This document shows, piece by piece, positions 4,029-32,948 of a stretch of DNA of 32,948 bases (within the stretch, counting starts at the first letter, position 1; the number at the start of each line of letters is the position of its first letter). The notes below the pieces were generated by a model. It searched no databases. It was not told where the DNA came from and saw only the letters and a program-made list of their open reading frames with translations. The stretch spans positions 1 through 32,948 of the forward strand of contig RBNJ01000327.1 of NCBI GenBank assembly GCA_003990765.1, written 5' to 3'. The DNA comes from Jimgerdemannia flammicorona. Lineage: Eukaryota. The translations under genes and the position numbers were made by a program.

Positions 4029-4053
4029 TAGAAAAAAAAGGAACGGGAAATCG

Positions 4054-8186: not shown

Positions 8187-8192
8187 GGTAAT

Positions 8193-8441
8193 GTAATGAA
8201 ATGCGTACGAATGTACGGAAGCGCAAAAGCATAAGTGTAAAGCGCATACGAAGTAATGTTGGGTGAATGGTAGAATTACATATAGAAGTAATGCGCCTAC
8301 CACGCTAGTACCAAAAAAGGAAAGACTACACCTGATTTAGAAACGCCTTAGACAAACAATGGCGTTGAAACATTTTTGGGTGCTATATGCCTAAGACCTT
8401 CCTGCATTCATTGACCTGTGGTCTCGAGCGAGCCCCCTCAT
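8193..8441 (-). repeat. Split direct repeat A1 (249 bp), 5' terminus of the Ngaro element
   Basis: Matches 3000-3248. Confidence 0.95.
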
Positions 8442-9567: not shown

Positions 9568-12500
9568 ATGAACAGTATAACTAATATTTTTTTCTCTAAA
9601 TGTGAATAGGTTACAAGGCTCTGGACAGTATAAGAACATTTTCACTTGGCTTAAGAGATTGGAGACTGATCTCCTTCTGCTGCAGGATGTGCATTGTGAG
9701 GTGGATGTGAATCAAGTAGAGTGGACTAGAGAATGGAGAGAAGCTATAGTTTGGATGGGCAAAGTGGCAGTTTTGGTGTGGGGTGGTAAAGAGGATTTGA
9801 GTAGCATCAGGAGTTAGGGAGACTGTTTGGTATTGAGGAAATGACATCAACCAGGGTGGGAGCCATTGTGAGTTGGTTCTTGCTACTGCTCTGTAGCTAG
9901 GGGTGAGTGGATTACATGCATTAAGGGTCTCTTAGAGGAGGGTACATTCTTAGAGGATGGGGTGGATGTTCTGGGGGGTGACTTCAATATGATATGGAAT
10001 CTTCAGTTAGATGGAACTGATAGAGGGAAGAGTGCTATAGAAGGAGTAGCAGCCTGGATGCATGAGAGGAGGTGGAGAACCTTAGCTCCTTGGGAGATAT
10101 GGGTAGAATGCAGTGAGGTGAAAAGAGGATTTACACACACTGAGTGACTAGGTACAAGGATCAACTAGATACTGACAGCTGAATTCTGGAGCATGGATGT
10201 TTGGAGGACTCTGGAGGTAGAGTAGTGTCCATGATCAGATCACTGGAGATTGGCAGTTTAGAGAGAGTAGAGATAGACCTAGACATTGCTACATTAACTT
10301 TTATCTGCTGGCTGAGAAGGGGTTGTGGGATCCTTGGGCAGAGGACATTCAGGGAAAGATCACTAGCTAGATACATGAAGGTTTGCCAGTAGATGTATTG
10401 TAAATGAAGTTGAAATAGGATGTAAGGGTTTACTGGAGAGGAGCTGGTAGGGATGCTGGGAGATGAAGAAGAAAGAGAGTGAGGTGTGCTTCTAATAGAT
10501 TGATTAGATTGCAGATGGAATGGGCTGACTTGATAAATTCTGGAGAGGTGGATGATTGGAGGTTAGTGTGAGCCAAGCTAGAAGTGGTAGAGTTACAACA
10601 GATATTGAGAGAGGAGGAGGAGATGCGAATGAAAGGAAAGGCAGCTAGGTTTAGGTGATAGGGGCTTGAGGAGGGAGAGGCATACTAGGTTTTATCAAGA
10701 CTCCTTTAGGCTAGAAGAGTGAGACATTATGGAGATAGAGTCCTGAATGCAGAGGGAGAAATAGTTCATAGTATACAACAGATCTTGAGGTTGCTAATAG
10801 AGCAGTGGAGGGGTCTGTGAAGTGAGGAGAAAGGGGGTGCTGAGGCATAGGCAAAAGGAGATGCTCTGGAGAATTGGGAGCTGTCACTAGTGGAGGGCCT
10901 CAGGTATTTGATCCTACCAGTCCAAGAGAAGGATATCTAGAGAGTCTTTGTGGAAACGAAGCTTTGAATGGTACCAGGAGAGGATGGACTATCTTGGGAC
11001 TTTTGGAAGAAGATGGTGAGGGTCTCAGGAGTGTTAGGAGAGATGACAGCTCTCTGTGATATTGTTCTTCTGAATGGCCAGTAGGTGGGAGGGCAGGACT
11101 TAGGGCTGGTGGCCCTATTATATAAGAGCCCTATTGTATAAGGACAAGGGGAGAAGGAAGGATTGGAAGAACTGGAGATTAATTATACTTCTAGATATAG
11201 ATAGAAAGAGAGTTACTAAGGTGATTGTAGCAAGGCTACAGAAGGTTACCCAACAGGTATTGAGTGAGGAGTAGTAGGGTTTTGTTGGAGGTAGATCTAT
11301 CAGAGATAGGATGGCCTGGGTCTATGGAATTATTGAAGGGGTACAGATGAGTGGATTGGATGGGAGACTGATCTTTTTGGACCAGGAGAAGGCCTATGAC
11401 TGTATCTGGTGGGTGTGGTTGGGCAAGGTGTGGAACAGAATAGGAGTTCCTCTACTATTTAGAGCTTCTATATTGAACTATTAGAGGGCAGTAGGGCAGC
11501 AATGATGTGTAATGGTCACCAGGATCTGGTGATTCCCTTGGGAAGAGGAGTTCCTCAGGGGGATTCACTGTCTCCTATTCTATATATCCTTTCACTAGAA
11601 CTTTTGATAGATTGGATTCAGTAGAAGGTGGCAGGGCTCTCTATTTATGGTGTAGTGTGGAAGGTGGGGGTCTTTGCAGATAACATGATGATTGGACTTG
11701 GATCAGTGGCAGATATTGAGACTCTTAAGGAGATAGTATAATGGTATGAGGTACACTCTGATACAAAACTCAACTGGCATAAGTGTGAGACAATGGTGTT
11801 GGGTAATGGGTTAGTGGGAGGGAATATCATTGGAACAATTTTCTCTGCAGAAGAGACAGTGAGGTATCTGGGTATCTTCCTTTTGGTTTATAGATCTGTC
11901 TTGCTACAGGTATAGTGAGAGAAGAGGGTGACTATGTGGGGAGAGGCTCTTAGAGGCTGGGGAGGACACCACATCTCTCTGGTAGGCCAGGTATTGATTC
12001 TGAATGTCTACTAGTTCCTTAAGCTATAGTATATGGCCTATCACTTAGATGTTTCTGCTTAAGTGGTGAAGAGACTGATGAAATAGGCTAGGGATTGGAT
12101 TTGGGCTAAGAGGTGGTCCCAGATCAGTTGGAATACTCTTTCAATACCAGTAGTTTGAGGGGGGCTAGAACTGGTGGATTTTCCTAAGAGACTATACTGC
12201 CTGAGAGCTTGGTGGTTGAAGTGGGCTATGGAACTGAGGGGAGGGAGATGGTGCCACTGATACAGAAGGTATGGGAGATAAGATTCTCTCCAAGAGAGTT
12301 CTTGGGGGATTTGATATCTCTGGTAGGCCTGGGTGGAAGCTGTCAGCTAAGGTAAAAAGACTTCTAGTGGGGGATTGCAGATGGACCATACTGTATAGGC
12401 TTGTGCTTGTATAGCAATAAAGAAGAGATACTGTAGAGACCAGCTATGTTGAGATAGGATAGACTGCTTTTGAGGGGCACTCAATGTTTTGAGTTTGATA

Positions 12501-13185
12501 TTGATGATAGAGTGGAGTGTCAGTAAGGCCTCAGTCAGGATCTTTTGCCTGAAAGTTGGCAAGCAGTAAGAATTGACAATGAGTGGAGATTGCGCAGAAG
12601 TCTGGGCATCGAGTGCTGAAGTACAAAGATGGCTTCCTCCCAAGTTCTGGATAGTATGGTAGCAGATGCTATAGAGGAATATTATATAGAATTTCTATGC
12701 TGGACATCTAGTGGATGGTAGGCTCCTGGAATGTGAGGAGTACTATAATGTAAGATAAGTTGGGGGATTTGTGCAGACTCTAGAACATTGGCTGGAAGAG
12801 TGTAAGGTTCTGAGGGACTTTTGGATAGCAGTAGGGGATCAGCTGGGTGTGGAGAGAACACCAGATGGGGAGAGAGGTTGCTGGAAAGATTTGAGAACTA
12901 GGTTAGTGAGAGGTGGGCAATGAATGATATACTATAGGGTGGGTTTTAGCTATATGGATAGGGCTGGCTAGACATAGGCTCTTTGTTTTTGAGGAGAGAT
13001 GACAGCTCAGTTTGCAGGAGAAGTTATTGAGATAGGAGGGGTTGATAGGAGATTTGCTGACAGAGTGGTGGGTGGGATGGGGTCCCCAAGATAGGAGTCA
13101 TCACTATCTGGTAAAAGGAATTTGTGAACAGAGTAGTGGGTGGGTGGAGGTGATTAATGACCTAGTGGTATTTAATAGAGAGAGT
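9568..13185 (+). pseudogene. LINE ORF2 remnant (APE endonuclease, RT, C-terminal Cys/His motif)
   Basis: ATG at 9568. APE motifs: SLNVN, LLLQDVH, GGDFN (about 9975), SDH (about 10235). RT motifs: PGEDG, NWR, GFVGGRSI, FLDQEKAYD, GVPQGDSLSP, FADN, YLG. EHWLEEC lies near 12785. There are many stops and frameshifts. Confidence 0.9.
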
Positions 13186-13199
13186 TTAGAGTGGCCTCT

Positions 13200-15354
13200 T
13201 CATACCTTTCTCAGTTACCACTCATGTTACACACACTTTTGCAATACACTTTTAAGTATTTATTGGAGAAAGATACTAAGACAATGACAACCAACAAGTA
13301 AGCTGATATGTATCCTGGGTTGGGTGGACCTAGAGCCTTCAACTGGCAATATGTTGGCCATGAATATAGATTAGGGATGGGGTCATTTGGTGGTCTGAGT
13401 GAACAGGGTAGTTCAGGCAGTGGTAGCAGTACTGGGAGAGAAGCCAGAGAGCAGAAGGGAAGGAGCTTTGCAGAGACATTGAAGAATAGTGGATAGCTGG
13501 TTAGATCTTGTAGTAGACAGACAGAGGGGAAGAGAAAGCAGAGGGAAGAAGTAGTGGGAGGTACTGGACCTCAGCTGGTAGGGGGTAGGGCTAATGGAGC
13601 AGTAGCTGAGAGTAGGGAGGGAACTGCTGATGGTGGTATGACTGGGAATCTGGAAAAAAATCCAGATGTGACTGCTGATAGAGGGGCTGAACAGGTGGGC
13701 CCAAGAGGAAGGGGGACCTAGTGGATGGTATGATAGGGCTGGTGGTGGAACCATTACTCAGAAAGTTAATCTTAGAGTTTGTGGCATTCTTGTATTTCAG
13801 GGGCTTGGCTGTGATGGCAAGGATGGTTCTGGGGATTATCTCAGAGCAAGTGGCTTAGGCTACATTGATGAAGTTTTTAAAGGAACTGGAGGGAGTTGAG
13901 GTGGGTTTTGAGGAAGTGGGTCCACTGGCAGAAGCTTTGAAGACTAGTATAGCTGTGGGAGAGGTAGTGGTCCCTATGGTGCAGTGTTTGAGGTGAGACC
14001 CCAGGGTGGTTCAGTTACTGATGAAGGGGGTGCCTATGGTAATAAAGTTGAGACTAGAAGGAGGGTAGAGGAAGTGATGGTGGAGTATGGTGATGTTATC
14101 AATATTGGATTCTGGATGTGGGAGGGGACTACTTTCAGGATAGGAGATGTTGATATCAGGATTAGACTGGCAGGGAGAGAGACTTCTGGGAAGACAAGTA
14201 ACTGGCCCTCCATATATTGTGAGGGGCCTTCATCTGTAAGGTGTCAAGGGTGAAGGAGAGTGAGGAGGAGGAGGAGGATCTGCTGGAGGCCCTCAAGGAG
14301 TTGAGCATGGCAGTTGAGCAGAGGGTGAAGGCCTGAAAGATATATGAAGAGACTATACATTTGGAAATTGTGAATGGGAAGCATATTCATACAGATAAGA
14401 GGCAGTGGGAGAGGGCTCAAGGGCACAAGCAACAGAGAGAGTTGTTGGCAAGCATGGATGGGAGGATGCTGGAGAAGCTGAGGAGTCTGGAGGGGCCAAG
14501 ATGAGTGTCTGAGCTAGTAAGAGAGAAGGGAATGAGGAGGAAGGCCTGGATGGAGCCAGCAAGATACCATGCAGTGAGTCATATGCTGATGGTCCATTTG
14601 AGGTCTGAGAAGAGGAATTAGATGGTACTCCTCCTCCTCTTATCAGGAGAGGTCCAGTTGGGAGGAGCTAGGTGGTGGAGGATATACTGATTTATGGTGC
14701 CCAGCAAGTACACTTTGGAGTTCCTGACATGCTGAAAGGGGGACAGGTGGTGGCTGTTGGTGAGGATGAGCTAGTTGATGTCCCAGAGGAGGGGTAGGAT
14801 GAGATGGTGAGTATAGAGACTGATATCACAATGCTGGATGCCAGGAGGCCAGTGATGCTAGGAGGAAAGGAGGTGGAAAACCTACTGTGGATGTGTCAAA
14901 TGATGAATAACTTTACAGCTGAAGAGTTGGGTGAAGTGGACCTGAGAGTAATGAGTGAGGAGCACTGGGTACAAATTCTGTATAAAGATGGAGTGGTGGA
15001 GGTACTGAAGGTAGAGGTACTTGCGATTCTTCTAGAAAAGGAGAGATATGAGGTTGATAAGGAGAGGGAGGCATGGCTGGCTGTTGGTACTGGTAAAAGG
15101 GCCACCTTCTGTTAGGCAGAGCATCATGGGCTGAAACTCTGGCAGGAGGCCTGTCTGAAGTATCATGAGGAATTTGAAGAAAAGGAGAATGGGGAGATGG
15201 TCAAACTGCTGGTTGGATTGGAGGCAAGGGAGGTTGAAGAGGAGGGATTGGCTCCCAAACATAACTTGGATGTAGCTCAAGAGAGAGATGTGGACTTATA
15301 GAGAATGAGCAGGACACTACTTCTAAACAATCTTCCCAATGAACAGCATAACCA
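13200..15354 (+). mobile_element. LINE copy 2: 5' UTR, ORF1 remnant and first codons of ORF2, truncated by the Gypsy internal region
   Basis: Collinear with copy 1 ORF1 (for example GTTFRIGDVDIRIRLAGRE and NNFTAEELGEVDLRV). An RSFAETLK motif lies near the N-terminus. The ORF2 ATG at 15339 is followed by an abrupt switch in sequence. The 5' UTR resembles the reverse complement of 24420-24515. Confidence 0.85.
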
Positions 15355-15594
15355 GATGCCAGTGGGCACCTTTTTCTGGTAACATTCCCAATCTCCCCAA
15401 TAGAACCCCTACCACAACCCCTTGCAGGACCAGAAGTAGCTCCTATAAGAATACCTAGGCCTATTCCACTCTATCCAAGAACCAGAACACCATCTTCAAG
15501 ATACCTAAGCACCCCCATCTCTAGTGATAGTTCAGAAAGTGAATCAGAATCAGGATCTGAACTTAAACCAGAATCAGAAGAAAGTGACAACAAA

Positions 15595-16500
15595 ATGGCC
15601 ACCTCATTGCTAACCTTTGCAGGATATCTGGAGGAAGACCCCAGAGAATTCCTTGATAGAATTGATGGAATTGCAGCCTTGAGAAATCTCTCAGATAAAA
15701 GAAAAATCGCTATCTATAAAGCTCAGCTCAGAGAACCAGCCAGAGGGATTTTCCATCGAACAGCAATCAACTGAGATTCAGAACTAGCAAGACAGATACA
15801 AGCAGCAATGTCTGATAAGCTAGAATATGAAGTCATGGTCTATTGGCTCATCAAAAAATATGCAGGAAATGAAACCTATCACAAGGCTCAGGAATCCATT
15901 ATGAGAATGAAGATGAATCTTGGAGAATCACCCAGAGCCTTCTTCACAAGAATCCGGAAGAGAATGCATTCTGCTGGGTTCAATGCCACCAACCAAGACA
16001 TCATAGGTCCAATGACCTTCATGAATGGAATTCCCTCAAATATTGCCCAGTATGTCTGCACCCTAGGTATCAGAAGGTCTGAAGAGCAAGTAGATGCAGC
16101 TCAAGGATTCTTTGATATTAGTCAAGAAACTACCTGGAGTGATCATGAAAAAAAGGAAGATAAAGAAGATATTCTGATCAAAGCCCTGCAAGGACTCCTT
16201 CAAGGACAAGAAAGATCTGTGGAAAGAAGGCCAGCCAAGGAGTGGAAGAAGGAGAAAAACGAAATTCAAGATCTCAACTCAAAACTAGACCGATTGGTGG
16301 GTCAGATTGAAAAACTCACCACATGCGAAAATCAGAACTATCAGTCAGACAACAGGGGATATCAACCTCAAAGGAACCAGGACTACCCCAAAGACAATGG
16401 GAGTTACCCAGAAGAAAGAAGATATCCCATCCGAGATAGAGCCCAAGTCTAATGCTTCCACTGTGGACAATTTGGACATTATGCTACAGAATGTGACAAT
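15595..16500 (+). pseudogene. gag: Gypsy gag with CCHC zinc knuckle
   Basis: Starts MATSLLTFAGYLEEDPREFL. CFHCGQFGHYATEC lies at 16453-16494. In-frame stops are present. Confidence 0.85.
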
Positions 16501-17079
16501 AAAAGAAATGACCAAAGGAGCTCTGAACCATCAAACCAAAGGAATGAAACCCAGTACAAAAAGACAGAAGCACATCCTATTGAAGATTTTGAAGAGAATG
16601 ACTGAGAAGAGTACAGTGACCTAGATCTATACCCAGCCAAGGTCATCAGCAGGAAGATAATATCCAGCAGAAAAATGAAAGAGACCAGTAGGAAGGCCTT
16701 CTAGGAATACCAGCAGAAGAATCATTCAAGATGAAGAGGAGGAAGATAAACAGAATCAAGTTGAAACACCTCCTTGGTCACCTTCACCATTAATCCCCAA
16801 AACAAGTGAACTGTCCCCAGAAAATCAAGAAATGGAACAAGAACCCACTCCTCCAAAGCCCAAGAAGAAGTACACCCCAAACACCATGCCCAGGTATATC
16901 TATGATGAAGCCTGGCAAAAGATTCAAGAAGCCAAGATAGAAGTTCCTCTCTTGTAGTTCTTGCCACTTACATCTGCTGGAGTCTGAAACAAATTATTGA
17001 GAACCACAAGGTCTAGCACTGGCCAGGTCCCAATCCCACAGCAAGAGCCAACCCCTATCCAAGCTGCAGAAAGACATGT

Positions 17080-17442
17080 CAACACATATCTGCATGGAAA
17101 CATTGGAGGACAAAAGCGAAAATCCTTATAGATACAGGAGCAGCTGTCTGTATGATCTCCAAACGATTCCTGGACAGCCTCCAATGGCCCATTGATGGAC
17201 CATCCAATCTCAGCATCATAGTAGCAGATGGTGCCCAAACCCAACCCCTTGGAGAAGTCCAAAACATCACCATCTCCCTAGGACACTTTCAGTTCTTGAT
17301 CCCAAAAGCTGTTGTCACTGAAGCTATCACCTATGACATGATCCTAGGCATGAATTGGATGAAGGAAATGAATGCAGTCATAGACATTGACCAACAAGTC
17401 CTCAAATTCGACTATAGAGGAAAAAAGTGTCACCAGCTATGA
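17080..17442 (+). pseudogene. Gypsy aspartic protease
   Basis: ILIDTGAAVCMIS (DTG at 17131-17139), VADG and DMILGMNW. Confidence 0.9.
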
Positions 17443-18742
17443 ACAATCAAAGAAGAAAAAGAAGGTTATCATTCAAGAGGAATATGCCAGCAGTAAAGAA
17501 TCCACCACAGAAGAGGAAGAAGAATCCGAAGATGGAAATGATCCCAGACTTAGCCCATGAATCAACCTAGTAAATGACAGGCCAGAAGACAATGTATGGG
17601 CCAAGGACACTATCCCTGTCACTATTGGAGCTATCGCAGGACAGATTAAAGGATGCCCTATATGCCTCAAGAGACACAAGTGCCCTGAGCACTCATCCAA
17701 GATCATTGGAGCCTGAAAATCACCTGGCACAGCCTGCTATGAGTGCAGAAGAAAGAAGAAGAAGTGCAATCATCTTCCAAAAACACCTGCAGATGAAGCA
17801 GCAGAAGTACAGGTGATTTGGGATCAAGAATCATCTGAAGAAGAAGTGTCCGAACAAGAAGAAGAAGCAACTGAACAAGAGGTCCCTGAACAGGAAGAAC
17901 CACCAGAACTCATCCCCTGGGATGATCTCAACTGGACACCATCCAAAGATGATGATGAGCCCTAGAATGTTAAAGAAGGACCAAGTACAATTCCTGTTAT
18001 CCAAAGGTAAGAAATACACCAAGAAAAAGCCTTTCAGGTAGGAAGATGCCAACATCAAATAACCTTCCACTCTCCTCAAGACTACTGCTATGAATGTCAC
18101 CTACTGGATCAACAAGAAAGACAGAGACCTGTGTGACCAAGAGTCTCAATGACAATCGCCCAGTCAATTATCTTTCAACAAGCAACCTCACATTTGGAAG
18201 AATGAGCTATTGGACATAGTATGTTTGTCCAAACAGAAATACAGCCCCTGATGACAATGCCTCCAATCTATGATGAAGAAGGATATCAATTCCCTAAACA
18301 AAAAGAAATCGCTGATCAGGAGTCATATTCTCAAGTGATGGGATATTGCAGCCATGAAAGACACACAGATTGCAGAGACTGCTGCCACCAGAAGATCCAT
18401 CTTAGCCAAAATGTTGCTGTACATACACTGAAGAGAGGAGATGGTAGAATGCAGACCCAAAAAAGTCAAAAGAAGCTGAAAAAGAAGACCCTCAAGATCT
18501 ATGATCTAGGAGAAGATATCCTGGCCTTAATCAGACATGCAACTTGTGAAGGAATGCTAGATGATGCTATCAACTTCATGGAAGCCCTAGATCCAATGGG
18601 AAAAAGAGGAATCAACTACCTCCAAGACCCTTCCACTAGAGCCAGATGGCCCCACCTCAATATCAGAGCATAGAGATTTACCACCATTGGAGCCTCAGCA
18701 CATGGACAGCCGAAACTGAGTAAAGACATTGCCCAATATGTC

Positions 18743-19145
18743 TTGCTGCACCCTCAGGCCAAACCACCGACCAAGGCTCACCAGGAGGATGTAGGCTATG
18801 ACCTTTATAGTCTGCAGAATCAACTAATCAAGCCTGGAAGAACTGTAGTATTCAGAACTGAACTAGCCATACAGCCACCCAAAGGAACTTACATCCAATT
18901 GACCTCAAGGTCTGGGCTAGCCAAGCAAGAAATCACTGTGGAAGGAGGAACCATAGACCCAGGATATACAGGTGAAATCAAGATTATCCTGAAGAACAGT
19001 AGTACTGAATGGTGCCAAATTTTCAGAGGACAAAGAATTGCACAAGTAGTCTTCATGAAGGCCAAGACTCCCCAGCTGCAAGAAGTTCATGAACTGACCC
19101 AAGGAACAAGACAAACCAAAGGATTTGGAAGCTCAGGCAAGAAAG
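18743..19145 (+). CDS. dut: Trimeric dUTPase domain within the Gypsy pol frame
   Basis: All five dUTPase motifs are visible: VGYDL, SRSGLA, GTIDPGYTGEI, RIAQ and RQTKGFGSSG. Confidence 0.93.
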
Positions 19146-19579
19146 AAATACACCTCCTCCAGGTCAACCATTTCAAAGAAAATGCCCCCCAGCAAGTACT
19201 CTGCCAACCAGTTAGAGTGTACAAAAATATCAGGAGAGCAAACAACCTTTGAAATCTTTGCCCCACCCGATCCCAGGAATCTTTTCTTTAAACCCATTGA
19301 AGACATCAAAGGATTGGAGATAGAAGGACACACATTCCCAGACAAGATGAATCCAGTGCACTCCCAAGCAAACAACCAAAGTTGGGGAAACATCATTCTG
19401 CCAAAAGGAACCATCATAGGACATCTGTTGCCAAATCTCAACTGAGCATACCGAGAGGTCTATGAATTGAACCTATCAGGAAATAGCAAAAGGTCCCAGA
19501 AGAAAGGAAAGGCCCCTCTGCGACCCAGGAGAAAGTAAAGCCTTCCACCAACATTGGAGAAGAATTGACATCTCAGCAG

Positions 19580-21975
19580 TGACAACAATTGATAGATCTT
19601 TTGCATAAATATCAGGACATCTTCACTACAGACTATGGTAACCTGCCACACAATCCATTATATCACCACAGCATAAATACAGGAAATGCAACACCCATCT
19701 GGCAGAAACCTTATAGAATACCCCACCATCTGAAAACATTTGAGAAGGAACACATTCAGGAACTCTTAGACAATGGAGTCATCTGACCCTCCACCAGCCC
19801 ATGGGCTAGCCCTATACTTATTGTACTCAAGAAAGGAGAATGGAGACTCTGTGTAGACCACAGGAAGCTCAACTCAATCACCGAAAAAGATGCTTACCCC
19901 TTGCCACAGATTGATGACCTTTTGGATCAACTACAAGAAGCCAGATACTTCAGCAGCATGGATCTTTTTGCAGGATTCCATGAAATCCCTATGGACCCCT
20001 AAGATATCCAGAAAACAGCTTTTCTTGCCCTAGCAAAACTGTTTGAATACACCCAAATGCCCTTTGGACTTTGCAATGTACCACCCACCTTCCAGAGAAT
20101 GATGAACTCAGTATATACCCCACTGATTCACCAATGCTTGATCATGTACATAGATGATTCCAACATCTACTCAGCAAATTTCGAAGACCATCTGCAGCAC
20201 CTAGAGGAATTCTTCGAGCTCACCTGCAAGAATCACCTGAGGCTCAATTCCAAGAAATGCTACTTCAGGAAACAGAAACTTGAATTCCTTGGATTCGTAG
20301 TTTCAAAAGAAGGAACACATGCAGACCCAAAGAAAACTGAAAAGATCAACAACTGGCCAGTCCCCAGGACCCCAAAAGAAACACTATCATTCCTGATGCT
20401 AGTGTCCTACTATAGAAGATTCATCAAGAACTTTGCTCAAATTGCCACTCCAATCCGAGCCCTTCTCAAGAAAGGAGTGCCATATAAGTAGACAGAATCC
20501 CAAGAACAAGCCTTCAAGGAACTCAAGCACAAAATGACAACAGCACCCATCCTTGTGTGACCCAACCTACAGAAGCCAATCATCCTGTACACAGATGCTT
20601 CCAAAGATGGTCTTGGTGTGGTTCTAGCTCAAGAAGAATCAGATGGCCTACACAATGTGATAGCTTATGCAAGTTGAGCAACAAGCCAATTATGGCGGCA
20701 CCAAACTAGAATACCTTGCAGTTATATGGGCAGTAACCTTTTTCAAGCACTACCTTATTGGAAAAAGATTCACTTTGATAACTAATTATGCAGTCCTCAA
20801 ATGGCTATTCAACCATAAGGATCTCTCTGGAATCTTGGCCCACTGGATTCTTATCTTGCAAGATTACAAAATCACTATCATTCACAAAGCAGAGAAAGCT
20901 CACAACAATGTGGATGTGCTTTCCTGCCAGTCCCAATGAACCAGAAGAAGGGTGTCCTGAGGAACTACACTCTGAAGGAAGCTCCTCAAACCATCAAGGC
21001 ACAAGAAGATCTTATCCAAAATAAACACCAGAAGGCCCACCAAGGACAATCAAATGTAGAAGAAATGCTACAAGCAATATATTAATATTGGCCCAATCTC
21101 TAAGCACAAGTTAGAGACATTTTCAAGAAGTGTGATATCTGTCAGAAGTACTAAGGAAAGAAGAATTATCAAGCACCACTCCAGCCAATCAAACCACCAG
21201 ACAACATCTTTCAGAGATGGGGAGTAGATATTATTAGACCACTACCAGTGATACCAAGAAGGAACAAATACATCCTAGTATTTATTGAACATCTGACCAA
21301 ATGGCCTGAAGCTTTTCTAATGGAAATTACTGATGCCCTGACAATTGTTGGCCTCCTCCATGGTCTGACCCTCAGATATGGACCCTCTGAAGAACTTATC
21401 TCTGACCAGGGCACAGAATTCATCAACAATGTAATCACAAGTTATACCTGAATTCATAATATCCACCTCAAAAGGACTACATCATACCACCCCCAGACTA
21501 ATGGCATGACTGAATGAATGAACCAGACCATCAAGAAAGGACTTACCTGAGTCAATCCTACCAATTGGGACCTCTGCTTACCTGAGATCCTATGGGAAAT
21601 TCGAAATACCCCTGCTGCCTCCACTAAATAAAAGCCATTTGAGATGATGTTCACCAAGAAGACAAGAACTGCTGACCATGAGAACCTTGGAGGCCTCCTC
21701 AAAAAGACAGAACAGTTATGTAATCAAGCCTGAGATCAGATAATCAAGGCCCAAGAAAGACAGAAGAAGTACTATGACAAAAAGCAGAAGGATCAGAAGA
21801 TCAAGATTGGAGATCAAGTACTAGTCTAGAGAAGTATGATTGAGACAAACTTTGCTGCCAAACTGGAGCCCAAATAGGAAGGACCTTATCTTGTACACAA
21901 TATCAGAGGAACTAGTATCTATTTAAGAAGCATGGATGGATGAACTCTGAGGATACCAATAGACACCAATTGCCT
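19580..21975 (+). pseudogene. pol: Gypsy RT, RNase H and integrase with GPY motif, multiple stops
   Basis: RT: QKPYRIP, SPWASP, WRLCVDHRKLN, MPFGLCN, YIDD (20147-20158). RNase H: YTDAS. Integrase: WGVD, ISDQGTEF, YHPQTNGMTE, EGPY. Confidence 0.93.
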
Positions 21976-21980
21976 CATGA

Positions 21981-22505
21981 TATATCTCTCCCCACATCAT
22001 AAACTTCAGAATTGATGACTGCCTCCAGATTCTTATTCTCAGCTCTCTCTAAGCCTTACCAGTTCCCCTGCCACAGTTCCAGAAACCCAATGGAACTTAT
22101 ATCCAGAAGATCTGAATTTACTAAGAAAACCTCATTCTGGCAGAAAGGCTTCTACAAATCCATCAGCTACAGGCCTACTATGTAATTGGAGAACTGATGC
22201 AGAACCTGTCCACTCTAGATGTGACCTATATCCATAGCACCACTGGTCTGAGCAGAAAGAACACCACTGTATCAGACAGACTGTACACAATCTACAAAAG
22301 AAATTCCTCAGCCCTGGGACAGGCACAGTTTTCTCTCAGAGATATACAATGAATGAACCAACCTACCTACCTCAGCATCATTCATCAAGTTGAAATCCTA
22401 TCCCCAGAAGAAGAACTCTTAGGATAGAGTGACTGTAGCTCAGATGAAGATGATGGGACAGGAATAGATACAGATGATGCTTATCCCCACTGAGATGATG
22501 ACTAA
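21981..22505 (+). pseudogene. Probable extra ORF (about 175 codons) between integrase and the PPT
   Basis: One frame reads as protein-like text (...LQAYYVIGELMQNL...DRLYTIYKRN...SLRDIQ*MN...acidic tail). It is interrupted only by stops explicable as C-to-T changes. Confidence 0.5.
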
Positions 22506-22533
22506 AGGATAGTCTGGAGACAGACTACCCTTT

Positions 22534-22545
22534 AGTGGGGGCTGA
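22534..22545 (+). other. Polypurine tract before the 3' LTR
   Basis: agtgggggctga immediately precedes TGTGATG. Confidence 0.6.
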
Positions 22546-22649
22546 TGTGATGAGCCAAGTACATAACCAGATGATGTGAACTTTCAGCATAAATATAGTT
22601 ACCTAGTTACCCACTTATAATTAACCGAAATACCAAATCTGTACACTAT

Positions 22650-22807
22650 CCCAAGTGGAACACCTGTTCCAAGTGGAACACTCATCTCAAGTGGAACACC
22701 TGTTCCAAGCAGAACACCTGTCCCAAGTGGAACATCTGTTCCAAGTGGAATACATGCCTCAAGTGGAACACCTGTTCCAAGCAGAACACCTGTCCCAAGT
22801 GGAATAC
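22650..22807 (+). repeat. 18-bp tandem repeat, about 9 units, with 72-bp higher-order period
   Basis: Unit (t/c)ccaagtggaacacctgt; variants recur every fourth unit. Confidence 0.92.
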
Positions 22808-22903
22808 TATTACTAGAAATAGCAGGCCTATAGTTAGCCTTATAGCAACCAGATAGCAACCAACTTGTATAAATTACCCCAGAAGCTAGAGTGAATAAAC
22901 CTC

Positions 22904-23104
22904 AGTTCAAAATCAAAAAGCAGGAGCTTCCTTTCCCACTCCGGTTCACTTTCCAATACAAAGTTCGAGTTCAAAATCAAAAAGCAGGAGCTTCCTTTCC
23001 CACTTCGGTTCACTTTCTGATACAAAGTTCGAGTTCAAAATCAAAAAACAGGAGCTTCCTTTCCCACTTCAGTTCACTTTCTGATACAAAGTTTGAGTTC
23101 AAAA
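22904..23104 (+). repeat. 64-bp tandem repeat, 3 copies
   Basis: agttcaaaatcaaaaagcaggagcttcctttcccact... starts at 22904, 22968 and 23032. Confidence 0.92.
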
Positions 23105-23449
23105 GCTTGAACCGCAAAAGTCAATTATCTGGTACACTTAGGAGGAGAAACCTGCCAATGAGCCTCTGCCAAGAAATTACAAGCCTGGAGAATCCAAATT
23201 CTGCCACTCAAGAAGAGCCACCATTTGAAGAGAAATCTATTTAAGTTCAAACACACCGCCTTAGGAATTTTGCCACAAAGCCAGTCTTTTGACACAACTT
23301 CACAGTAGAGCCAGTTTCAACATAGCTCTGCACAAATTAAGCCAGTCTTTGATGTATCTTTGCCAAGAATCTGCCCAAGTTATCCACCATGCCAAAATCG
23401 TCTGCATTTCTAGTTAAAGAAGGAAGTCGCACACAAGAGATTGTCTCAC

Positions 23450-23583
23450 CAGAAATCGCATACTTTTGGAGAATACAATCATCATGCAGAAATTACATAC
23501 TTTTGGAGAATATGATTGTTAAGCAGAAATCACATACTTTTGAAGAATATGATAGTCACCCAGAAATCATCTACTTTTGGAGA
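23450..23583 (+). repeat. 37-bp tandem repeat, about 3.6 copies
   Basis: cagaaatyrcatacttttggagaata... starts at 23450, 23487, 23524 and 23561. Confidence 0.88.
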
Positions 23584-24084
23584 TTGTCGCACTATACAAA
23601 TCATCCGCATTTCAGTTAAAGAAGGAAACTGCTTATGCTACACAAATTATCCACCTATTCTCAGTCAACAAGAGATCAACGCACTATACAGGAATTCCCA
23701 GTTGACCTAATTGGGGAAGCTACACTCAGAGAACCGACCCAATTAGGAAATCGACATACAATTAACTGCTGTATCCAGATTTGACTATTATACCACTAAA
23801 CACCAAAGGACTTCAGGAATCTTAGACTATTTTATTGCTTTTAAACAAAGTAACTGGGGGCTCAAGCCAAATTCACACATCTCCCAACCTTGTAATTTGC
23901 CTCCATTGAGCCAGGCACATTACAATATATATGTATCTAGTTAACTTTTGGTATTGCAATAGATAATAGAGACAGGCCAGTTATATATTTGGGAAGAGAC
24001 AGAAGACTTATAAAGATTTTGATGCTGGTCTGATATTATGACATTCATATAATCATATGATCACTTCTCTGATCACATGTTTTT

Positions 24085-24515
24085 GGATCAGAAATTAGCA
24101 GCAGTCCTACTCTCTCTAGCCACTACTCTCTCAGTCCTGCCCCCACTACTCTCTGGGGCCTCTCTACTAGATCCTACAGCTGCTCCCTTCCCTTTATCAC
24201 CCTGTAGCCAGATATCTAAGCCTATCAATAAGCACTCAGTCTTAACTTTATTAGCAAAGCTCACTCTTCTAGTCTTCTGTCTCTCAACATCACCCCCTTC
24301 TCTTTCACCTCCTTGCCTTCTATATTTATCAGCTAGCAAGCCCAACAGACTTTCTCACTTCTTCCTACATATTACCAGTCAAATATACTAAAGATGGCCT
24401 GCCAAGCATACTCCTTTAATCTCTAATTAGTTGCTATATTATTATCACCTTTGCTCTAAAAACTGTATTAAAAGTATTATCAAAAGTTTGTGTAATATGA
24501 ATTATAGTAGAAAGA
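24085..24515 (-). mobile_element. 5' fragment (UTR and ORF1 start) of the same LINE family
   Basis: The reverse complement resembles 13205-13300 (cat[ag]ttacaca..ctttt). It encodes RRVSFANKVK...KGKG, similar to RSFAETLK in copy 2. Confidence 0.55.
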
Positions 24516-24599
24516 GATGTCTACTTTGTTATTATCAAATTAAATTATATTATAGATATCCTTTATAATATATCCAATTAGAGTATTTGCAGAATATAG

Positions 24600-25080
24600 T
24601 CATCTAAGTATAAAAAGAGTCTGTCAGTAGTCTGGATTTTCTTAATATATTTATTTCTGATTGAGTTCTTATATTATATTATGGATTTGACCATAGGTCA
24701 GAGTAGTAACCTTTTCAGAGATAGTAACTTAGAGATGGAAAATAAAGTACTGTACTTATAGAAGAGTTCTTAGTATTTATATATAATGAGGTTTTAATAT
24801 TAAGATTTTAGTAATATTGGTAGTGTGATAGTAGTTGACTATATCTTCAAGAAGATGACTAATTTGATAGTATCTTGAGATTTGTCTGATTTTGTAGACT
24901 TAATTGAATATGTTTAGATTATTTTATCTAACTTCTATAAAATAGAGAGATCCTAAGTTGTAAATATTCATTAGAGATAGAGGTGCTATAGAATAGTTAA
25001 TAATAGTATTCCAAATATCAGTATAGATATAATTGTAGATTTTAGTAGTTATGTATAAGTATATATTTAAGAATTATGGT
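24600..25080 (+). pseudogene. Highly decayed Gypsy-type integrase remnant from a second element
   Basis: Traces of IMDLT, VIVVDY.FKKM and RDPK resemble SMDF, VVVDRFSKM and SDRDPKF. The region is very AT-rich. Confidence 0.4.
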
Positions 25081-26334
25081 TATCCATTTTTGGTAATTTT
25101 TGTCTCAATATATAGTACGTCTAATATATATATATTTAATCTTAATTTCTAAGGTTCTATTTCTATTAATCTTATATTTTGTAACTTCAGTTTGACTTAG
25201 CTTTATAATCTTAAATTCTGTAACTTATATATAAGTTATCTACTCATCTCATTAGAGAGAATCAGGTTCTACCCACTGTTCAGTATTTTTTATAAAGGTT
25301 TTCTTTATCTATCACTCTATTTAGAGTAGTGGGATCTATAAAAATTAGCTTGGGCATAATTTTATATATATATTGAGGTTTTGGATATATATCTTCAGTT
25401 ATAAGTATATAGTCACTTTCTCTCTAGTAATAGAAAGAGCATAATATATAGAATGAAGTATTGACTAATAATAGTCCTGCTATACCTAACTTAGTTGAGC
25501 TACTGAATAATAATTAGTCTAGATTAATAGAAGTATAGTTCTTAGAGAGAGGGTTTTGGTCTATATAGTTTAGATTCTCTTTTAATAAAATTTTATAGAA
25601 CTTGAGTCTATTAAATTAAAAATAAAATAAAATAAACATTTATATTAAAGAAGTTTCCAACTGCTAACCAGAGCTCATAACCTTGTTATGAGAAATAGAA
25701 GAAGCAATTTATTCTTAATATTTAAGTTATATATTTTACATATTACTAATAAATGATATAAAACTAATAGAATAATATATAGTATAAAGTCACATAACTA
25801 TATATTGAGTTGTTATCCCAATAATATTTCAATTTTATCTATATTATAATTTAAGAGATCTATTTAATTATTTTTTTTTTTAGCTAATAATAAATATAAA
25901 ATTGATAATAGTTATTAATATAATTGAAATTTATAATATTAATTATAAATTATTAAAATAATTAAGTTATAACTTTTCATAATTAAAGTTTGTAATATAA
26001 TATAATTTGTTCTATATTTAATAACAATAATCATAATATATATTGTAGGTTATTTATTAAAAAAAATCAGCAACTTTTGTATTACAAAAAAGAAATAAAA
26101 AATTAATTTTGATTATCTGCAGTTTTACTTTAAATAACTACTTATTAAATTTTAAATTTTTCTCATCTTTAACTTCCTTAAATTATTATATGATCATTCA
26201 TAGATATCCAATGATCATATATATATTAGATTTTGGATCCTCACTGATATCAATACAAGATAATGATATTGGGTGAAATTTATTATTAGACAGACTTTGA
26301 CCAATATCCAGCACATACAACAACAACAATTCAA

Positions 26335-27795
26335 CTGCTTACCTTCTTTCCTTGGTATGGAGTTTTGCACCTGTAGGCATGCCTTGAGCCCCATACCAGC
26401 ATCGGTTTCTGCTGCCGTTTTCTTGTCATCTCTGTGCCAATGTTGACAACGTTTCCAATTTCGGCACCTCCCGGCATTGGCATTTGTTCCAATCCTTTGC
26501 CTTTATTTCCACAGATGACAAGGGGAATCGTATGAAAGAGAGGTATGGCAGATTTACGCATTACAAACTATACGAATTACCAAATAACTGATACGGGACA
26601 ACCGACATATTTTAGAATTACCTGATCCACTCGAATAACATTTTTGACTTTCCATGGAGGTTCGCCACCTTCATCCAAGATCGGGAAGTATGTTTTTATG
26701 TTCGTGGGGTAGATGAGAAGAATAATTGGTGAATAGACAATGATGTGGTTGAAATTTTTTAGGAATTTCGTTTACTGCCAAGTTCATACCAGTTATCGGA
26801 GGCACTTTATCATCCGCCTATTTAGCAAGTAGGGTCAGAGCCGCATTTTCCATTTGGACTGCCTTCGACTTGGGCACAACCTTCTATCCTTTCTCCTTAG
26901 CTTCCACAAGGAGAAGCCCCTGGTATTTATTACGAAATAGTTAAGGCAAATTTATACATTACGTACTCTACGGGATCCAGGTTACATCAGAAGCATTCAT
27001 ACGAGATAATCCTCTAATATTAAAACTATCAAGTGCAAAGGGGGCATTTCCTTACTTTCTGCAGTATTAGGAAGGTATATTTTGTGCAAGACTCAGGTTG
27101 GGGAGAGGAAGGATGAGCGCAATGACAATGACGTGGTTGTAATCGGAGCAGGTATTGCGTCGAGATACCGGTTATGTAGTAATATTTCGATACCCTGGTT
27201 AAAACTCAACCGCCACCGAGGACGACAGGACCCTGGAAATAGGTAAATCGGGTTTATTTTTAAGGATTATTCAGAATACACTCAGAAACAAATGTACAAG
27301 TCAATCCCCTAATTTTAAAATTACGTTGTGCACGGAGATCTGGGAGATTTGTCAATTTTTGCGACCGGGATCGCATCTCGTGCTGAACGATATTCCTTCT
27401 CATCTCGGATGGATTGAAAAATTATGTCCATATCCTTAAATTTCATCGACAGTGCAGGTATTCCTTGTAATTTGGGTCATCGTCGCGCGCCTTCTTCCAA
27501 GGCCGGACCCAGTAGTTAACTTGAAAATACTATTCCGAGAGCCCATACGTCACTGGAAAACGCTCTCCAGATTTCAGGCTCGTCAGAAGGTATTTCCGGC
27601 TCATGTAGAGCCAAGAGCCGTCATCAATAACTTGACGCAGGGTGGAGCGCAGATGCTCGGAGACACGGTCCATAATAAGCATGATCCGATGATCGTCCTT
27701 AATCGCGCTGAGGACGTTGAGGAACCCCCTTCGCCCGGACATGAGATAGTTGCGTCCAATCTCTGCACGGAGGTCCCTTAGTTCCTTAAAACCTT
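26335..27795 (-). pseudogene. Multi-exon gene remnant of unknown family
   Basis: CpG-retaining, exon-like blocks (about 27325-27792, 27055-27235, 26790-26922, 26622-26697, 26343-26567) are separated by AT-rich GT-AG introns, for example ...RVDQ|gtaatt...tatag|FVMRK.... Several in-frame stops are present. Confidence 0.55.
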
Positions 27796-28441
27796 TTAAC
27801 ATATTTGCACCATGTAATTGAACATGGATTTGTAACAATAAATCAATAAAACAATTAAAAAAAAAAAAAAAAAAAGAAGGGAGAGTGGAGGTCGAGCGTG
27901 TCCTGACAAATTCCATCATATATAAATTAGAGAAGTAGGGGAGAGATCGTTTGCGATACATTTGAAAATGACAAGTGAGTAACATGCCATCAAAAAATAT
28001 TTACCTAGGCTCGAATGTTGGAAGCAGAAAACGTTATTCTAAAACTCATTCAAATTTGCTAATAATATGTATCATGCTCAAGATTTCTTTTTACTGATCG
28101 TAGTAAGATCATTAATTTTGTATAAGATACCAGCAGGTTTCATTACCATCTGTGATCAAATTCAAATCATATTTGTATTCGAATTAACTACCCTAATGTC
28201 CAGTGTCCCGCGCCACCTTTCCATTACAATTTACATAATTCCAGCCTTCCGCCTTAGCCACTACCCAAGAGTTCACCTTAGCCACGGCCTTGTACCCTGC
28301 GCCCCCTTCGAGAATACGAAGAAAGGAACTCGAGAAAACATATTGTGAGAATGGTGAACGATTTGTAAACTCTAAACCCCCTTGCCTTCCTCCCTCCTTC
28401 CATCCCCACCCCCAACCGCAAACTTAATAAATTAATTAAAA

Positions 28442-28984
28442 TGCCGAAAAATTCCGACACACACGGCTTACTTACACATGACATTCACTGGAATCGCTTG
28501 TCGACATAGATATGCCATGCTGGGCAAGCCAGCGCCATGGAACCCCTCATTTGCTTGTGCACTCCATGTCGGGGAGGTCCGACGCACCTTGTTTGCCTGC
28601 GTATCCCCACGCTTAATGACGTTTCGCTCGTAGTGCTTGGCCCCATGGAGGGTAGTCGATATTCGATGAAGCTGGGGAGCGTGACTTGGCGATAGCAGAC
28701 ACTGGGCAAACCGGTGCCATGGAACACCCCTTGTGCTTGTGCACCCCAAATATTTTAATTGTCGGGGAGGTCCGACACACCTTGTTTGCCTGCGTACACC
28801 CACCACTCAGGTCGATTCGCCCGTAGTGCTTGGCCCCATGGAGGGTAGTCGATATGCGATGAAGCTGGGGAGCGACGCTTGGCAACAGGAATACTGGGCA
28901 AACCGGTGCTCTTTCAAAGGGTGTATCCACGTTACTCGATGAGGTGGTTCTTGAAGGCGTAAAGGCGGGTTTACAAGCCTTCAT
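28442..28984 (-). ncRNA. Candidate structured RNA: 5' hairpin region plus three tandem units (192, 182 and 94 nt)
   Basis: Long-range helices are conserved across the units with compensatory and G-U substitutions. I recognise no known family. Confidence 0.5.
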
Positions 28985-29002
28985 TTTTTTTTTACCGAAG
29001 TG

Positions 29003-29040
29003 GTCACGTGTCTTTTCAAAGTCTTAAGGAAACGTCATCA
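29003..29040. promoter_or_regulatory. Possible promoter motifs (gtCACGTG E-box and ACGTCA CRE-like half site) just upstream of the candidate RNA
   Basis: Short motif matches within a CpG-retaining island; not specific on their own. Confidence 0.3.
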
Positions 29041-29439
29041 TCGTATCGATACTGGATATGACTCCGTGTAGACAGAGATATAGATGACGGATACATTTAT
29101 AGAAGTGGGGCCTCAAACCGGAACAGTTTTCTCAAGAAGCTTGGTGGAAACGATATTAACGTCCTTAGAGTTGAAAGTGCACCTGTCAACTCGACAGACA
29201 ATAACAATAAATTTTCACTGGCAAAGAGCGGCGTAACTGATTGTTAGTGACGTGCCACTTAAGACGTCGATATGTAAGCCACATTTCCGCTCAACAAGAT
29301 ATCCTATAATTGATAAGTAGGAAATGCAGACAAAAACAAATAAATATAAAGCCCTATGTCTGGAGGAAATTTTCAGTCTGAAAATCACTTTCAGTATTTT
29401 GAATGATATTATCTCTAGAAACAAAGAAAAAATATACTA

Positions 29440-30600
29440 TGAGATACATTAGTTAAATATATTATCTTTGCCTCTTTCTCTGCTATCTTACCAGTCACAA
29501 TGGTTTGGTAGGCAACCTTCTGAGTCCCCTTTCCACAATTATTACCCTCTCTACCTTGGGTTGGTTTGCTGTACCTTTTGCAGGGCAGTGAGAGGGAGGC
29601 AATGGTGATGAGTTGCCCCTTTATCAGTATCAGATTGGTGTCTTCTCTACTTTTTTGCAGTTTCTGGTGCCTTTGGCTGTATCTGGGGTGCATTCATTTT
29701 AGTGCAGTGCCTTCTTCCTTTTGCTGTCACCAATAAGGTGGTATCTCGGTATGTCTCAGGCTACATAGGGAGTTGGCTGACCTTAGGCATCAAGTACTTA
29801 GTGTAGATTATCTGCAGGTCCTCAGTACCTGTAGTGGGGTCCTCTGGCTTTGGCAAGCTTCCCAATGAGTGCAGTTCTGGCATAGGTGGCTGCTTTTTGA
29901 GTGTTATTGGGATGGGAGGGGAGATGGCCATCACAGATAGGAGGAAGGGTGATAACGGTAAACCAGTAGAGTACTAGGCTGGAGGTGGTCATCAGGGCTG
30001 AGGCAGATGCTGCTTCGGTGGGGTCTTTTGATTAGTGTGACATAGTTAGGTGATACATAGGTGACACTCTCAGCTTCTTTTGGCAGGTTGGCAGGTTAGG
30101 CTCCAGTCATCAGATGGGGTCGGGGGGTCTGAGGCTACCTATTTCAGGTATCTTGGCTATACTCAACTAGACCTGGAAGCTGACACAGCAATGTGATCGA
30201 GGCCTACAGGCTTGAGTAGTAGGGTATTAGGAGTCTCCTCCTGCCTTACATATAAGTCCTTTACTTACCTTGACTGGGAGAACCAGACCCTACCAACTGT
30301 ATTATACTTTGATGAGAGTTTTTCTTTATCTGTTATTCTCTTTGAGGTGGCAGAGGCTATTCTATTTGGCTCAGGCATGGTTTTGTATATATGTTGGGTT
30401 CTTAGGCATATGCTTTCAGTTGTTGGCGTATGGTTGGGTTGCCTCTGGTGGAGGAAGAGTATGGTGTACAGAATAAGATATAGGCCACCATAGGCCCTGC
30501 TGTATCTGGCATGGTCGAGCTACTGGACAATAGCTAGCCTAGGTTAATGGAGAAGCAGTACTTGATAGGTGGTGGGGGAGAGTTTTAGCCTATATAGTCT
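29440..30600 (-). mobile_element. CpG-depleted decayed TE remnant, possibly LINE ORF1-like
   Basis: Composition matches the other dead TEs, and there is a CHLC...H trace near 30030-30070. No diagnostic catalytic motif was found. Confidence 0.3.
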
Positions 30601-30648
30601 AGATTCCCTTCCAATAAAAATCTGCAGGATATTAAGTCCATTAAAAAG

Positions 30649-30651
<3 letters not shown>

Positions 30652-30678
<27 letters not shown>
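30652..30678. repeat. (AT)n microsatellite
   Basis: Read directly from the sequence. Confidence 0.9.
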
Positions 30679-30682
<4 letters not shown>

Positions 30683-32948
30683 CTTTAGAAGGTCCTTTGT
30701 TATTAAACTAGCCATATAGTACTACTTTCTATATATTTAAATGAAAATTAATATCAAATATTAATAAATTATACTCTCTTAAAATAAATAATATAAATTT
30801 TTTTATATTTTTACTCTATTTAATAACTTTTCTTTATTATTTATTGAAAATATTTAATAATTAAATATATATAAATATTTATTAATAAATATAAACTATT
30901 AATTTTCTATATGAAAATAATATAAAAGAGTAAATTTATTAATATATATATTTTTATTATATAATTCTTCTTTAATAATTAAGTAATATAATATAGTGAA
31001 TATATACTAATAGAAATATAATAGATTTCTTTATCCTGAATACTTGATCTTCTTTGACTCTTTAGAGTTCTCAGATATAAGGGTGGGTGAGTTCAAAGCA
31101 TATATATCTGCTTATAGGTTTACTATATGTTACTTATTTATTTAAACTATTTTGATCTGATATTTATTTACTCTATATACTAAGAATATTTATATAAGTT
31201 TACTAACCATATAGTAGTTAAGTTAAGATATCTTTTTGTATAAGTTATTTTATATAGTTGAGAGGTCTCTATATCTGTAAAGTCTCTATACTTGAGAGAT
31301 CTATATGTTTATACTTTTTATATAATTATACTAATTATACATATAATATAAGATTGAGTGATTGCTAAAATATAATACTATATTATATCAGCAATTAGAT
31401 TCAGATACTATGATCAAATATCTATCTTCTGATAGTTATTTCTAATTTAGAATAACTATTATAACTTCTTTCAATATAAGTAATTTTATTCTTAAATTAT
31501 ATTATTTAAACTTCTATATTTCAACTAATTATATATTTTTATACTATATAATCTACTCAATTATATTCTTTTAATGATATCTCTTTATCAACTAGAAATC
31601 TCTTAGAACTACTTCTCAGAAATAGACCAAAGCTTACTCTATCTTTGAATAGTTTATAGACCTAGTTGGTTATAGTGATCTGGATATTATATATATATCT
31701 AATACTCTATAATCCATTCTTTTTAGTTATATCATTTTTGTTTAGTATTTTTTCCAACTAGAAGTACTCTTGAAACTCAGCATAGTATTAATTGGCTCCA
31801 AAATGTAAAATTTAGTATAGGTAAACTATATAATATTTTCAATACTATTAAATAATTTTCCTAAAGCTGACAGCTCAGTAATACACTATTATATATCTTT
31901 CTATAGCTTGCTGATAGTACTCTCAATAAATCAAATTACATTAAAGATCCAATTTAATACAATTCAAAATTAATTTCAAATCCTATTTTATAAAATATAA
32001 TAACTTAATAAATATATATCAAATTTATGGATCTTTAGCTTATTAGATTCTTCTATATAAGACAAATCTAATAAGCTAAATAATATTAAATTGAGTTATA
32101 TTTTTATTATGTTATTATATTTCTAAAAATAGAGTTCAAATGAGACTATTAATTTAATTCAAATTAAAAAATTTACAATTCTATTACATTTAAATAACTC
32201 TCAATTTAATTTAATTCAAATTGCTTTGCTTTATTTTGAAATATAGATAGCATTTGTAATCTTGTGAGCTATAACTAGTATTCTAAATAGATACAATTTA
32301 TCAGGATGAGATTAGATTCAGATTTATTATATAATAAATTCAAATCAACTTAGATTAATCTTGTAATCTGATCTGAATTAATTCAGATAGATCAAGATTA
32401 CTTGAAATCTTAGATAATATTACTCTTTTTTTATTCTTCTTTCTTTGTTCTCTCTTCTTTTATTCTCTGATACTTTTTTTTATTTCTTCTGCCATATTAT
32501 AAACAAATAAATAATAGCTTTTAATTATATATTGTTCTACTTATTTTTTTATCTAATGATTATCATAAGAGGGAATATTTGAGATAGTAAAGCACTCTCT
32601 GCTGATAATATTAAATTCTTTCTTATATGAATAGTATATAAGCTACTTATTGAAAGCCAAAGTAGAGGTAGCAATGCCAATAGTGATGGTGATGGTGATG
32701 GTGATGATAAAGCTGAAAATGAGAGAGAATTCTGACAACAACTCATAATGACCCTTTGGACTTCAGAATTCATAGACCTCATTGCTATATATATAGTAGC
32801 CTTTTTAAAGTAATAGTTAGTAGATTTAGATTACTTACTCACTACTATATTTAAATTCTCACAATATAACTAAGTTCATTTTATATTTCTCTTTTTCTTA
32901 GTATCTACAGCTCTATAGTAAGATTGGTCAACTTTTTTTTTTTTTTTT

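Follow-up and report, generated by a model that had tools for sequence, protein, structure and literature searches.

The minus strand of the window, by which we mean the whole 32,948-base stretch of DNA analysed, carries a real, non-coding tandem repeat with a unit of about 190 bases. It is found in RNA libraries, and no known RNA family matches it. On an even balance of belief, we favour the reading that this array is the local copy of a lineage-specific, dispersed, modular, multi-copy family of transcribed non-coding repeats. The preliminary description of this DNA had proposed an undescribed multi-domain structured RNA, composed of three tandem units with covarying long-range helices and kept by selection on RNA structure. 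Its observations were confirmed in part, and its interpretation is supported in part.

Organization of the array

The minus-strand sequence from 28909 to 28442 agrees with the preliminary description, and all of the elements named there are in the sequence (Table 1), including the leader hairpin and the U4 run. GCACCGGUUUGCC starts both units 1 and 2 and meets its partner GGCAAACAAGGUG(U/C) about 110 nt downstream, and a GUCGG-ACCUCC-CCGAC hairpin stands after unit 1 and after unit 2. Unit 3 contains GGCUUGC/GUAAGCC plus GCAUGGCAU/AUGUCAUGU, and forms an outer helix of 12 bp and an inner one of 9 bp, with a terminal hairpin at 28458-28443 and then UUUU at 28441-28438. On the minus strand each unit is thus closed by a 12-bp outer helix, with a hairpin of 5-6 bp next to it. 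Immediately upstream of the leader hairpin on this strand is an A10 run (28993-28984); viewed from the plus strand, T10 comes after the leader hairpin, and this combination is a terminator-like signal for the plus strand too.

Table 1. Positions of the array, its parts and the surrounding features in the window
Feature	Positions	Strand	Description	Basis
Leader hairpin UGAAGGC...GCCUUCA	28952..28983	-	Perfect 7 bp, precedes array	Sequence, whole-array fold
Unit 1	28718..28909	-	192 nt	
Unit 1 outer helix	28909-28897 with 28790-28777	-		
Unit 1 hairpin	28776-28761	-		
Unit 1 conserved core	28873-28822	-		
Unit 2	28536..28717	-	182 nt	
Unit 2 outer helix	28717-28705 with 28598-28585	-		
Unit 2 hairpin	28584-28569	-		
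Unit 2 conserved core	28680-28629	-		
Unit 3	28442..28535	-	94 nt, shortened and diverged copy	
Stretch downstream of array	28202..28441	-	Non-coding, including a purine-rich run	Related-contig depth, loose ends
CpG-normal island holding array	26400..29400	.	CpG observed/expected about 0.65-1.3, both flanks nearly CpG-free	

Of the three tandem units proposed, units 1 and 2 are clear, with an overall likeness of 81-87%: they contain direct repeats of 129 nt at 87% and 47 nt at 83%, and align by blastn over 209 nt at 81%. A 20-mer from the core occurs twice in the window versus not once in 100 shuffles, while Tandem Repeats Finder did not list the array at a minimum score of 30. With gap runs collapsed, 27 of 183 columns differ between the two units (12 transitions and 13 transversions), which are further separated by indels of 1 nt and 11 nt. 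The reported contrast between a near-identical core and diverging arms was borne out, since the differences cluster in two arms and the tail, with a bin variance reached by 95 of 10,000 permutations. The identical 34-nt run between the units was reached by 686 of 10,000.

Unit 3 did not hold as a full unit. It shares its first 16 nt and last 25 nt or so with units 1 and 2, and a profile of these two scores it at E = 3.7 only, yet its interior aligns pairwise above chance (z about 4.8, reached by none of 1000 shuffles), indicating a deleted, diverged copy. No further copy was found in the 32,948-base window with nhmmer profiles of the units or blastn. A candidate degenerate unit upstream of unit 1 was rejected as its alignment was unconvincing.

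Related sequences in public sequencing runs

Parts of the stretch are contained in 18 public runs, none of which contains half of its words. Eleven of the 18 are registered as RNA, namely metatranscriptomes of roots and soil; the runs represent 16 studies, with a single campaign perhaps behind many of those from roots. Four runs were compared, all as contigs and hence without readable strand or transcript ends. A soil run (DNA by guess) gave one identical 229-nt contig over 28712-28940, a soil metatranscriptome gave a 255-nt contig over 28675-28929 with 5 differences, and a root metatranscriptome gave five contigs of about 90-95% identity, matching contigs being obtained from two RNA libraries of different studies.

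The fourth run (X2, "organism A"), whose kind, RNA or DNA, is a guess, provided 48 contigs on the 2.2 kb compared, 4 of them at 99% identity or more, 11 at 95-99%, 12 at 90-95% and 21 under 90%; 28 of the 48 lie only partly on the stretch. Summed depth reaches a maximum of 15048 in the core (28644), which may mean expression instead of copies given the guessed kind of the run, and is zero at 27822-28191 and 28858-29449, intervals that we do not count as evidence of absence. In contigs of this run, position 28636 of the core is joined to 28480 or to 28405, and one abundant form passes from the core directly to 28405, past the outer helix and hairpin of unit 3. Loose ends at 28671 and 28781 lead out of the window sequence, and by depth peak and joints unit 2 positions 28671-28636 are the part common to most related contigs.

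The stretch downstream of the array is kept together with it in related contigs as far as 28202, where likeness falls below 85% and loose ends occur in two runs. An X2 contig 99% like 28209-28651 continues beyond 28209 in sequence foreign to the window, and a similar continuation was found in the root run at 28202, with a motif missing from the window. Splicing at 28202 was considered and rejected, because the sequence carried there by other contigs is absent from the window. Exact-pattern scans with two conserved unit stretches returned no loci in metagenome, viral and prokaryotic genome contigs.

Variant contigs, differing flanks and variable joints together are the signature of a multi-copy, modular family. 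Diverged copies in different flanks, the mark of a dispersed family, are present among the contigs of X2, a run of guessed kind, and the window holds one locus. The repeat, its non-coding state, its occurrence in RNA libraries and the many variant copies flanked by other sequence are all directly seen. From these we infer dispersal as a mobile or satellite-like element, together with a mechanism of reshuffling. The modules of the family would be a conserved core of about 36-52 nt, two arms that change fast, an inverted repeat that closes the unit, and a short hairpin. Units would have been duplicated in tandem and then reshuffled through unequal recombination and deletion, which would explain why two units are full and one is shortened here and why the joints differ in other copies, and the copies would be transcribed or very abundant and so appear in RNA libraries. 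The core, outer helix and hairpin are either constrained or recently homogenised at the sequence level. Because a multi-copy family with variable joints and flanks allows recent duplication or homogenisation to account for unit identity, their near-identity would come from such events, perhaps also from sequence constraint, and can be explained without proven selection for base pairing.

The dispersed-repeat reading is supported by the variant copies and modular joints in X2, the broken reading frames, the absence of visible pairing selection and the island-wide extent of normal CpG content. It is opposed by the single locus in the 33-kb window, the absence of transposon hallmarks and the guessed kind of X2. 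Moreover, divergence is clustered in the two arms, both unit-to-unit and in the listed relatives, which simple neutral decay does not predict, and folding favours the minus strand.

Folding, covariation and the case for a structured RNA

The outer helix and the hairpin after it are present in the minimum-energy fold of each unit and in the two-unit consensus fold. In the three-unit alignment of these elements 49 of 51 cells pair, with nine pairs invariant, five changed on one side, one changed on both sides (U-A to C-G) and two unpaired in unit 3. All five one-sided changes still pair, giving G-U on the minus strand. However, 165 of 500 column shuffles matched the observed pairing and covariation, and so the description of the helices as covarying was not upheld: a single compensatory pair in three units is within the shuffle range, and selection on RNA pairing is not demonstrated. 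Sliding the partner by 1-3 columns reduced pairing to 33-39%, a drop that is unavoidable for a structure read from the same sequences. The inner helices, whose differences between units had been taken as further covariation, vary by one-sided changes only and are absent from the two-unit consensus fold, which picks other inner pairs.

Compared with dinucleotide shuffles, the minus-strand z scores are -0.01 for unit 1, -1.5 for unit 2 and -3.6 for unit 3, the last of which scores -0.35 on the plus strand; for the whole array, z is -2.8 on the minus versus -0.1 on the plus strand. Thus, units 1 and 2 fold no better than shuffles; unit 3, alone among the units, does so, as does the array as a whole. 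Across the island, sliding windows of 150 nt on the minus strand average z -0.46 within the array (10 windows) versus -0.13 for the others (48 windows), by which the array is not an outlier inside its island. The outer helix, the hairpins and the long hairpin of unit 3 are real features that favour the minus strand. On the choice of strand, folding agrees with the preliminary description.

In the whole-array fold, the leader (28950-28912) pairs on the minus strand with the tails of unit 1 (28745-28725) and unit 2 (28552-28540), so that the units are enclosed one after another. Leader and unit 2 tail are complementary at 12 of 13 positions, which may be chance (p about 0.1 by rough estimate).

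Substitutions in the relatives were placed on the per-unit minimum-energy folds. The 34 rows listed, beside which the table has 53 further rows, represent 30 distinct positions, 18 paired and 12 unpaired. Among the listed substitutions at the 18 paired positions, 6 keep the pair and 12 break it, leaving the inner folds unsupported. One listed substitution falls in the outer helix or hairpin, at 28533 (G-U to A-U), and nearly all others fall in the same two arms and tail that vary between units 1 and 2; no outer-helix or hairpin pair was seen to covary among the substitutions listed. A root-metatranscriptome contig carries insertions of 11 nt and 12 nt where the window units differ in length, and the 12-nt insertion sits at the base of the unit 3 inner helix, so that the compact architecture of unit 3 in the window is not shared by this relative.

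Known RNA families were searched with Rfam 15. No match was found in the whole window at gathering thresholds, nor on 26300-29500 at E up to 1, and at E up to 10 only chance-level matches were obtained (3 and 1; 12.7-16.6 bits), so that the array remains undescribed by Rfam, as had been supposed. ARAGORN predicted no tRNA genes, and the Rfam tRNA model likewise stayed without a match at E up to 10; only a loose resemblance to A and B boxes was seen by eye, at positions 9-19 and 49-59 of unit 2. No snoRNA C/D or H/ACA boxes common to units 1 and 2 were found in their alignment, and the sole snoRNA match in Rfam at E up to 10 scores 14.5 bits versus a threshold of 75 and lies outside the units. 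The ribozyme models of Rfam gave no match, even at E up to 10, although sequence is poorly conserved among HDV-like ribozymes; a CUGA motif is present in unit 1 and absent from unit 2. A hammerhead core, which is not common to the units, and a telomerase RNA, for which a template-like repeat is missing, were both rejected. A full-text literature search with 13-16-mers from the units returned no match.

We regard it as possible, though doubtful, that the minus strand of the array encodes a new structured non-coding RNA, as a gene or as one of a gene family, or that the array is a functional structured RNA in the wider sense. Each unit would then be a domain in which the panhandle helix and hairpin clamp the conserved core and the two arms are free to vary, and the molecule would be a guide-like RNA, a ribozyme or the scaffold of a ribonucleoprotein. 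A folding bias between the strands, in unit 3 as in the whole array, the stability of unit 3 and the conservation of core, outer helix and hairpin between variable arms, seen between units and again in relatives, keep this explanation alive. It is also consistent with the lack of any matching RNA or protein family, with the pairing of 49 of 51 cells, including one compensatory pair and five one-sided changes to G-U (minus strand), and with the parts found in 11 runs filed as RNA and the contigs that two such libraries, each of its own study, provided. Against it stand covariation within the range of shuffles, the shuffle-like folding of units 1 and 2 and the breaking of 12 of the 18 listed paired positions, with which the inner helices are not kept. 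In addition, the abundant contig form that skips from the core to 28405 bypasses the outer helix and hairpin of unit 3, the inner helix of unit 3 has a 12-base insertion at its foot in one relative, and the plus strand ends in a hairpin and T10 as well. A more specific version is unlikely in our judgement: an undescribed, abundant, modular structured-RNA family of a soil- and root-associated eukaryote, probably a fungus, with an invariant core of 36-52 nt clamped by the panhandle helix and hairpin and with two hypervariable arms. The arms would differ between paralogues and relatives, a layout that would fit a ribozyme, a ribonucleoprotein scaffold or a guide-like RNA with target-choosing arms.

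Genomic context and mobile-element hallmarks

The CpG retention ascribed to the array is real, but it spans a 3-kb island (Table 1) and is thus not a property of the array in particular. The CpG observed/expected ratio is about 0 over most of the window and about 1 in 3000-8300 and, with sharp edges, in 26400-29400, one estimate there being about 0.8-1.3 versus about 0 on either side; the CpG-normal state, also found in the apparently intact retroelement at 3000-8300, marks young or unmethylated DNA. Values of 0.00-0.12 were obtained in 1-2500, 9000-15000, 15300-26300 and 29400-32948. The segment 9000-15000 has 12% C versus 33% G (GC skew about +0.45) with CpT and ApG in excess, which looks like strand-asymmetric hypermutation or deamination of old repeats, and stretches of 7-20% G+C are present at about 25800-26200 and 30600-31000. 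Long open frames occupy the minus strand at 3000-8336, with matches to RVT_1 (E = 1.3e-9) and, weakly and below the cut-off, to an integrase-SAM-like domain (E = 0.0098); this may be a young tyrosine-recombinase-type retroelement. On the plus strand, dUTPase (E = 2.7e-31) and reverse transcriptase (E = 7.7e-18) matches at 18674-19252 and 20003-20491 lie in a CpG-depleted retroelement.

The hallmarks of transposons, namely terminal repeats with a target-site duplication, flanking direct repeats, a neighbouring transposase and ORF1/ORF2, were not found at the array. As to an LTR, solo LTR or TRIM, no direct repeats flank the array, and upstream sequence does not recur after the purine-rich run at about 28412-28372. 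Tf1-like self-priming and a primer-binding site where the unit begins were rejected, as LTR context is missing. As to a MITE, each unit has an inverted repeat of 12-13 nt with no duplication beside it. An inverted pair of an A run plus GAAGG and its complement (16 nt, 94% complementary; 27865-27880 and 28978-28993) brackets a 1.1-kb segment with the array, and related contigs give no cover at 27822-28191. As to LINE 5' monomers, no ORF of at least 120 aa with reverse transcriptase adjoins the array.

The island contains no recognisable gene. Elsewhere in it, an A19 tract on the plus strand (27857-27875) stands after two AATAAA motifs and resembles the 3' end of a retroposed copy, as the sequence suggests. 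Frames are open on both strands over 27440-27875, where X2 contigs match 27630-27786 at about 90% and then diverge. The minus strand of 27470-27650, unrelated in sequence to the array, folds with z -3.2 (2 of 200 shuffles fold as well), sliding windows reaching z -4.0.

The surroundings also bear on whether the units are sub-repeats of a promoter, an enhancer or an untranslated leader of a neighbouring transcription unit, comparable to sub-repeats in ribosomal spacers or to tandem monomers in the 5' regions of some LINEs, acting as DNA or within a longer transcript. The unmethylated-looking CpG island around the array, a number of units that differs between copies and a minus-strand TATAAAT that precedes the leader hairpin by about 110 nt are in line with such a role. 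We nonetheless hold it to be improbable, given that no recognisable gene lies downstream of the array on either strand: a search of 1.84 billion representatives gave no relative of the only sizeable downstream ORF (27533-27811, minus strand), which has no Pfam match either. Furthermore, the window contains no rRNA by Rfam, and no LINE ORF adjoins the array.

Coding potential

Two frames are open across a unit, a minus-strand ORF of 136 aa (28613-29023) and a plus-strand ORF of 85 aa (28685-28942). Neither has a protein relative among 5.8 billion clusters, and the array ORFs matched no Pfam family, one chance-level match (E = 0.11) being obtained from 14 small ORFs. The root-metatranscriptome contig over 28465-28694, for which all 13 substitutions and all 24 gap letters are listed, has insertions of 12 nt and 11 nt and a 1-nt deletion (net +22), and a second related contig, over 28746-28919, has a net indel of +1. 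No reading frame is kept in the related contigs, as the description of a non-coding array had implied, and the array is therefore non-coding. A repeated peptide encoded by either ORF, suggested only by the open frames themselves, is close to refuted by the unit lengths of 192 and 182 nt with their 1-nt and 11-nt indels, by the indels in relatives and by the lack of any protein or Pfam match.

Significance and comparison with known systems

As the evidence stands, the array represents an unclassified family of transcribed repeats, useful for annotation and repeat masking. It also offers a caution, in that the identity of tandem copies together with an inverted repeat can mimic covariation. If the array were a structured RNA after all, it would add a new RNA class in root and soil metatranscriptomes, and its constant scaffold with variable arms would raise the question of catalysis or guiding.

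Three kinds of known systems invite comparison. Multi-domain structured RNAs with repeated domains include tandem riboswitch aptamers and polycistronic snoRNA clusters. The array shares with them repeated units that are each closed by a helix, a conserved core beside variable parts, and a terminal hairpin with a U run, but differs in having no Rfam match, no conserved C/D or H/ACA boxes and no supported covariation.

Self-cleaving ribozymes of the hammerhead and HDV-like types occur in repeats, both in retroelements and in satellites. Like these, the array lies in DNA rich in repeats, is built of units in tandem and has a short, strongly conserved core that helices enclose; unlike these, it matches no Rfam ribozyme at E up to 10, and CUGA is found in unit 1 and not in unit 2.

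Dispersed non-coding repeats with tandem sub-repeats include SINE-like and other non-autonomous elements and the 5' monomers of mouse L1. Whereas no poly(A) tail, target-site duplication, head like tRNA, 7SL or 5S RNA, or adjacent LINE ORFs were found for the array, it shares with these repeats many diverged copies in different flanks, a non-coding and transcribed state, and units of about 190 nt whose number varies between copies.
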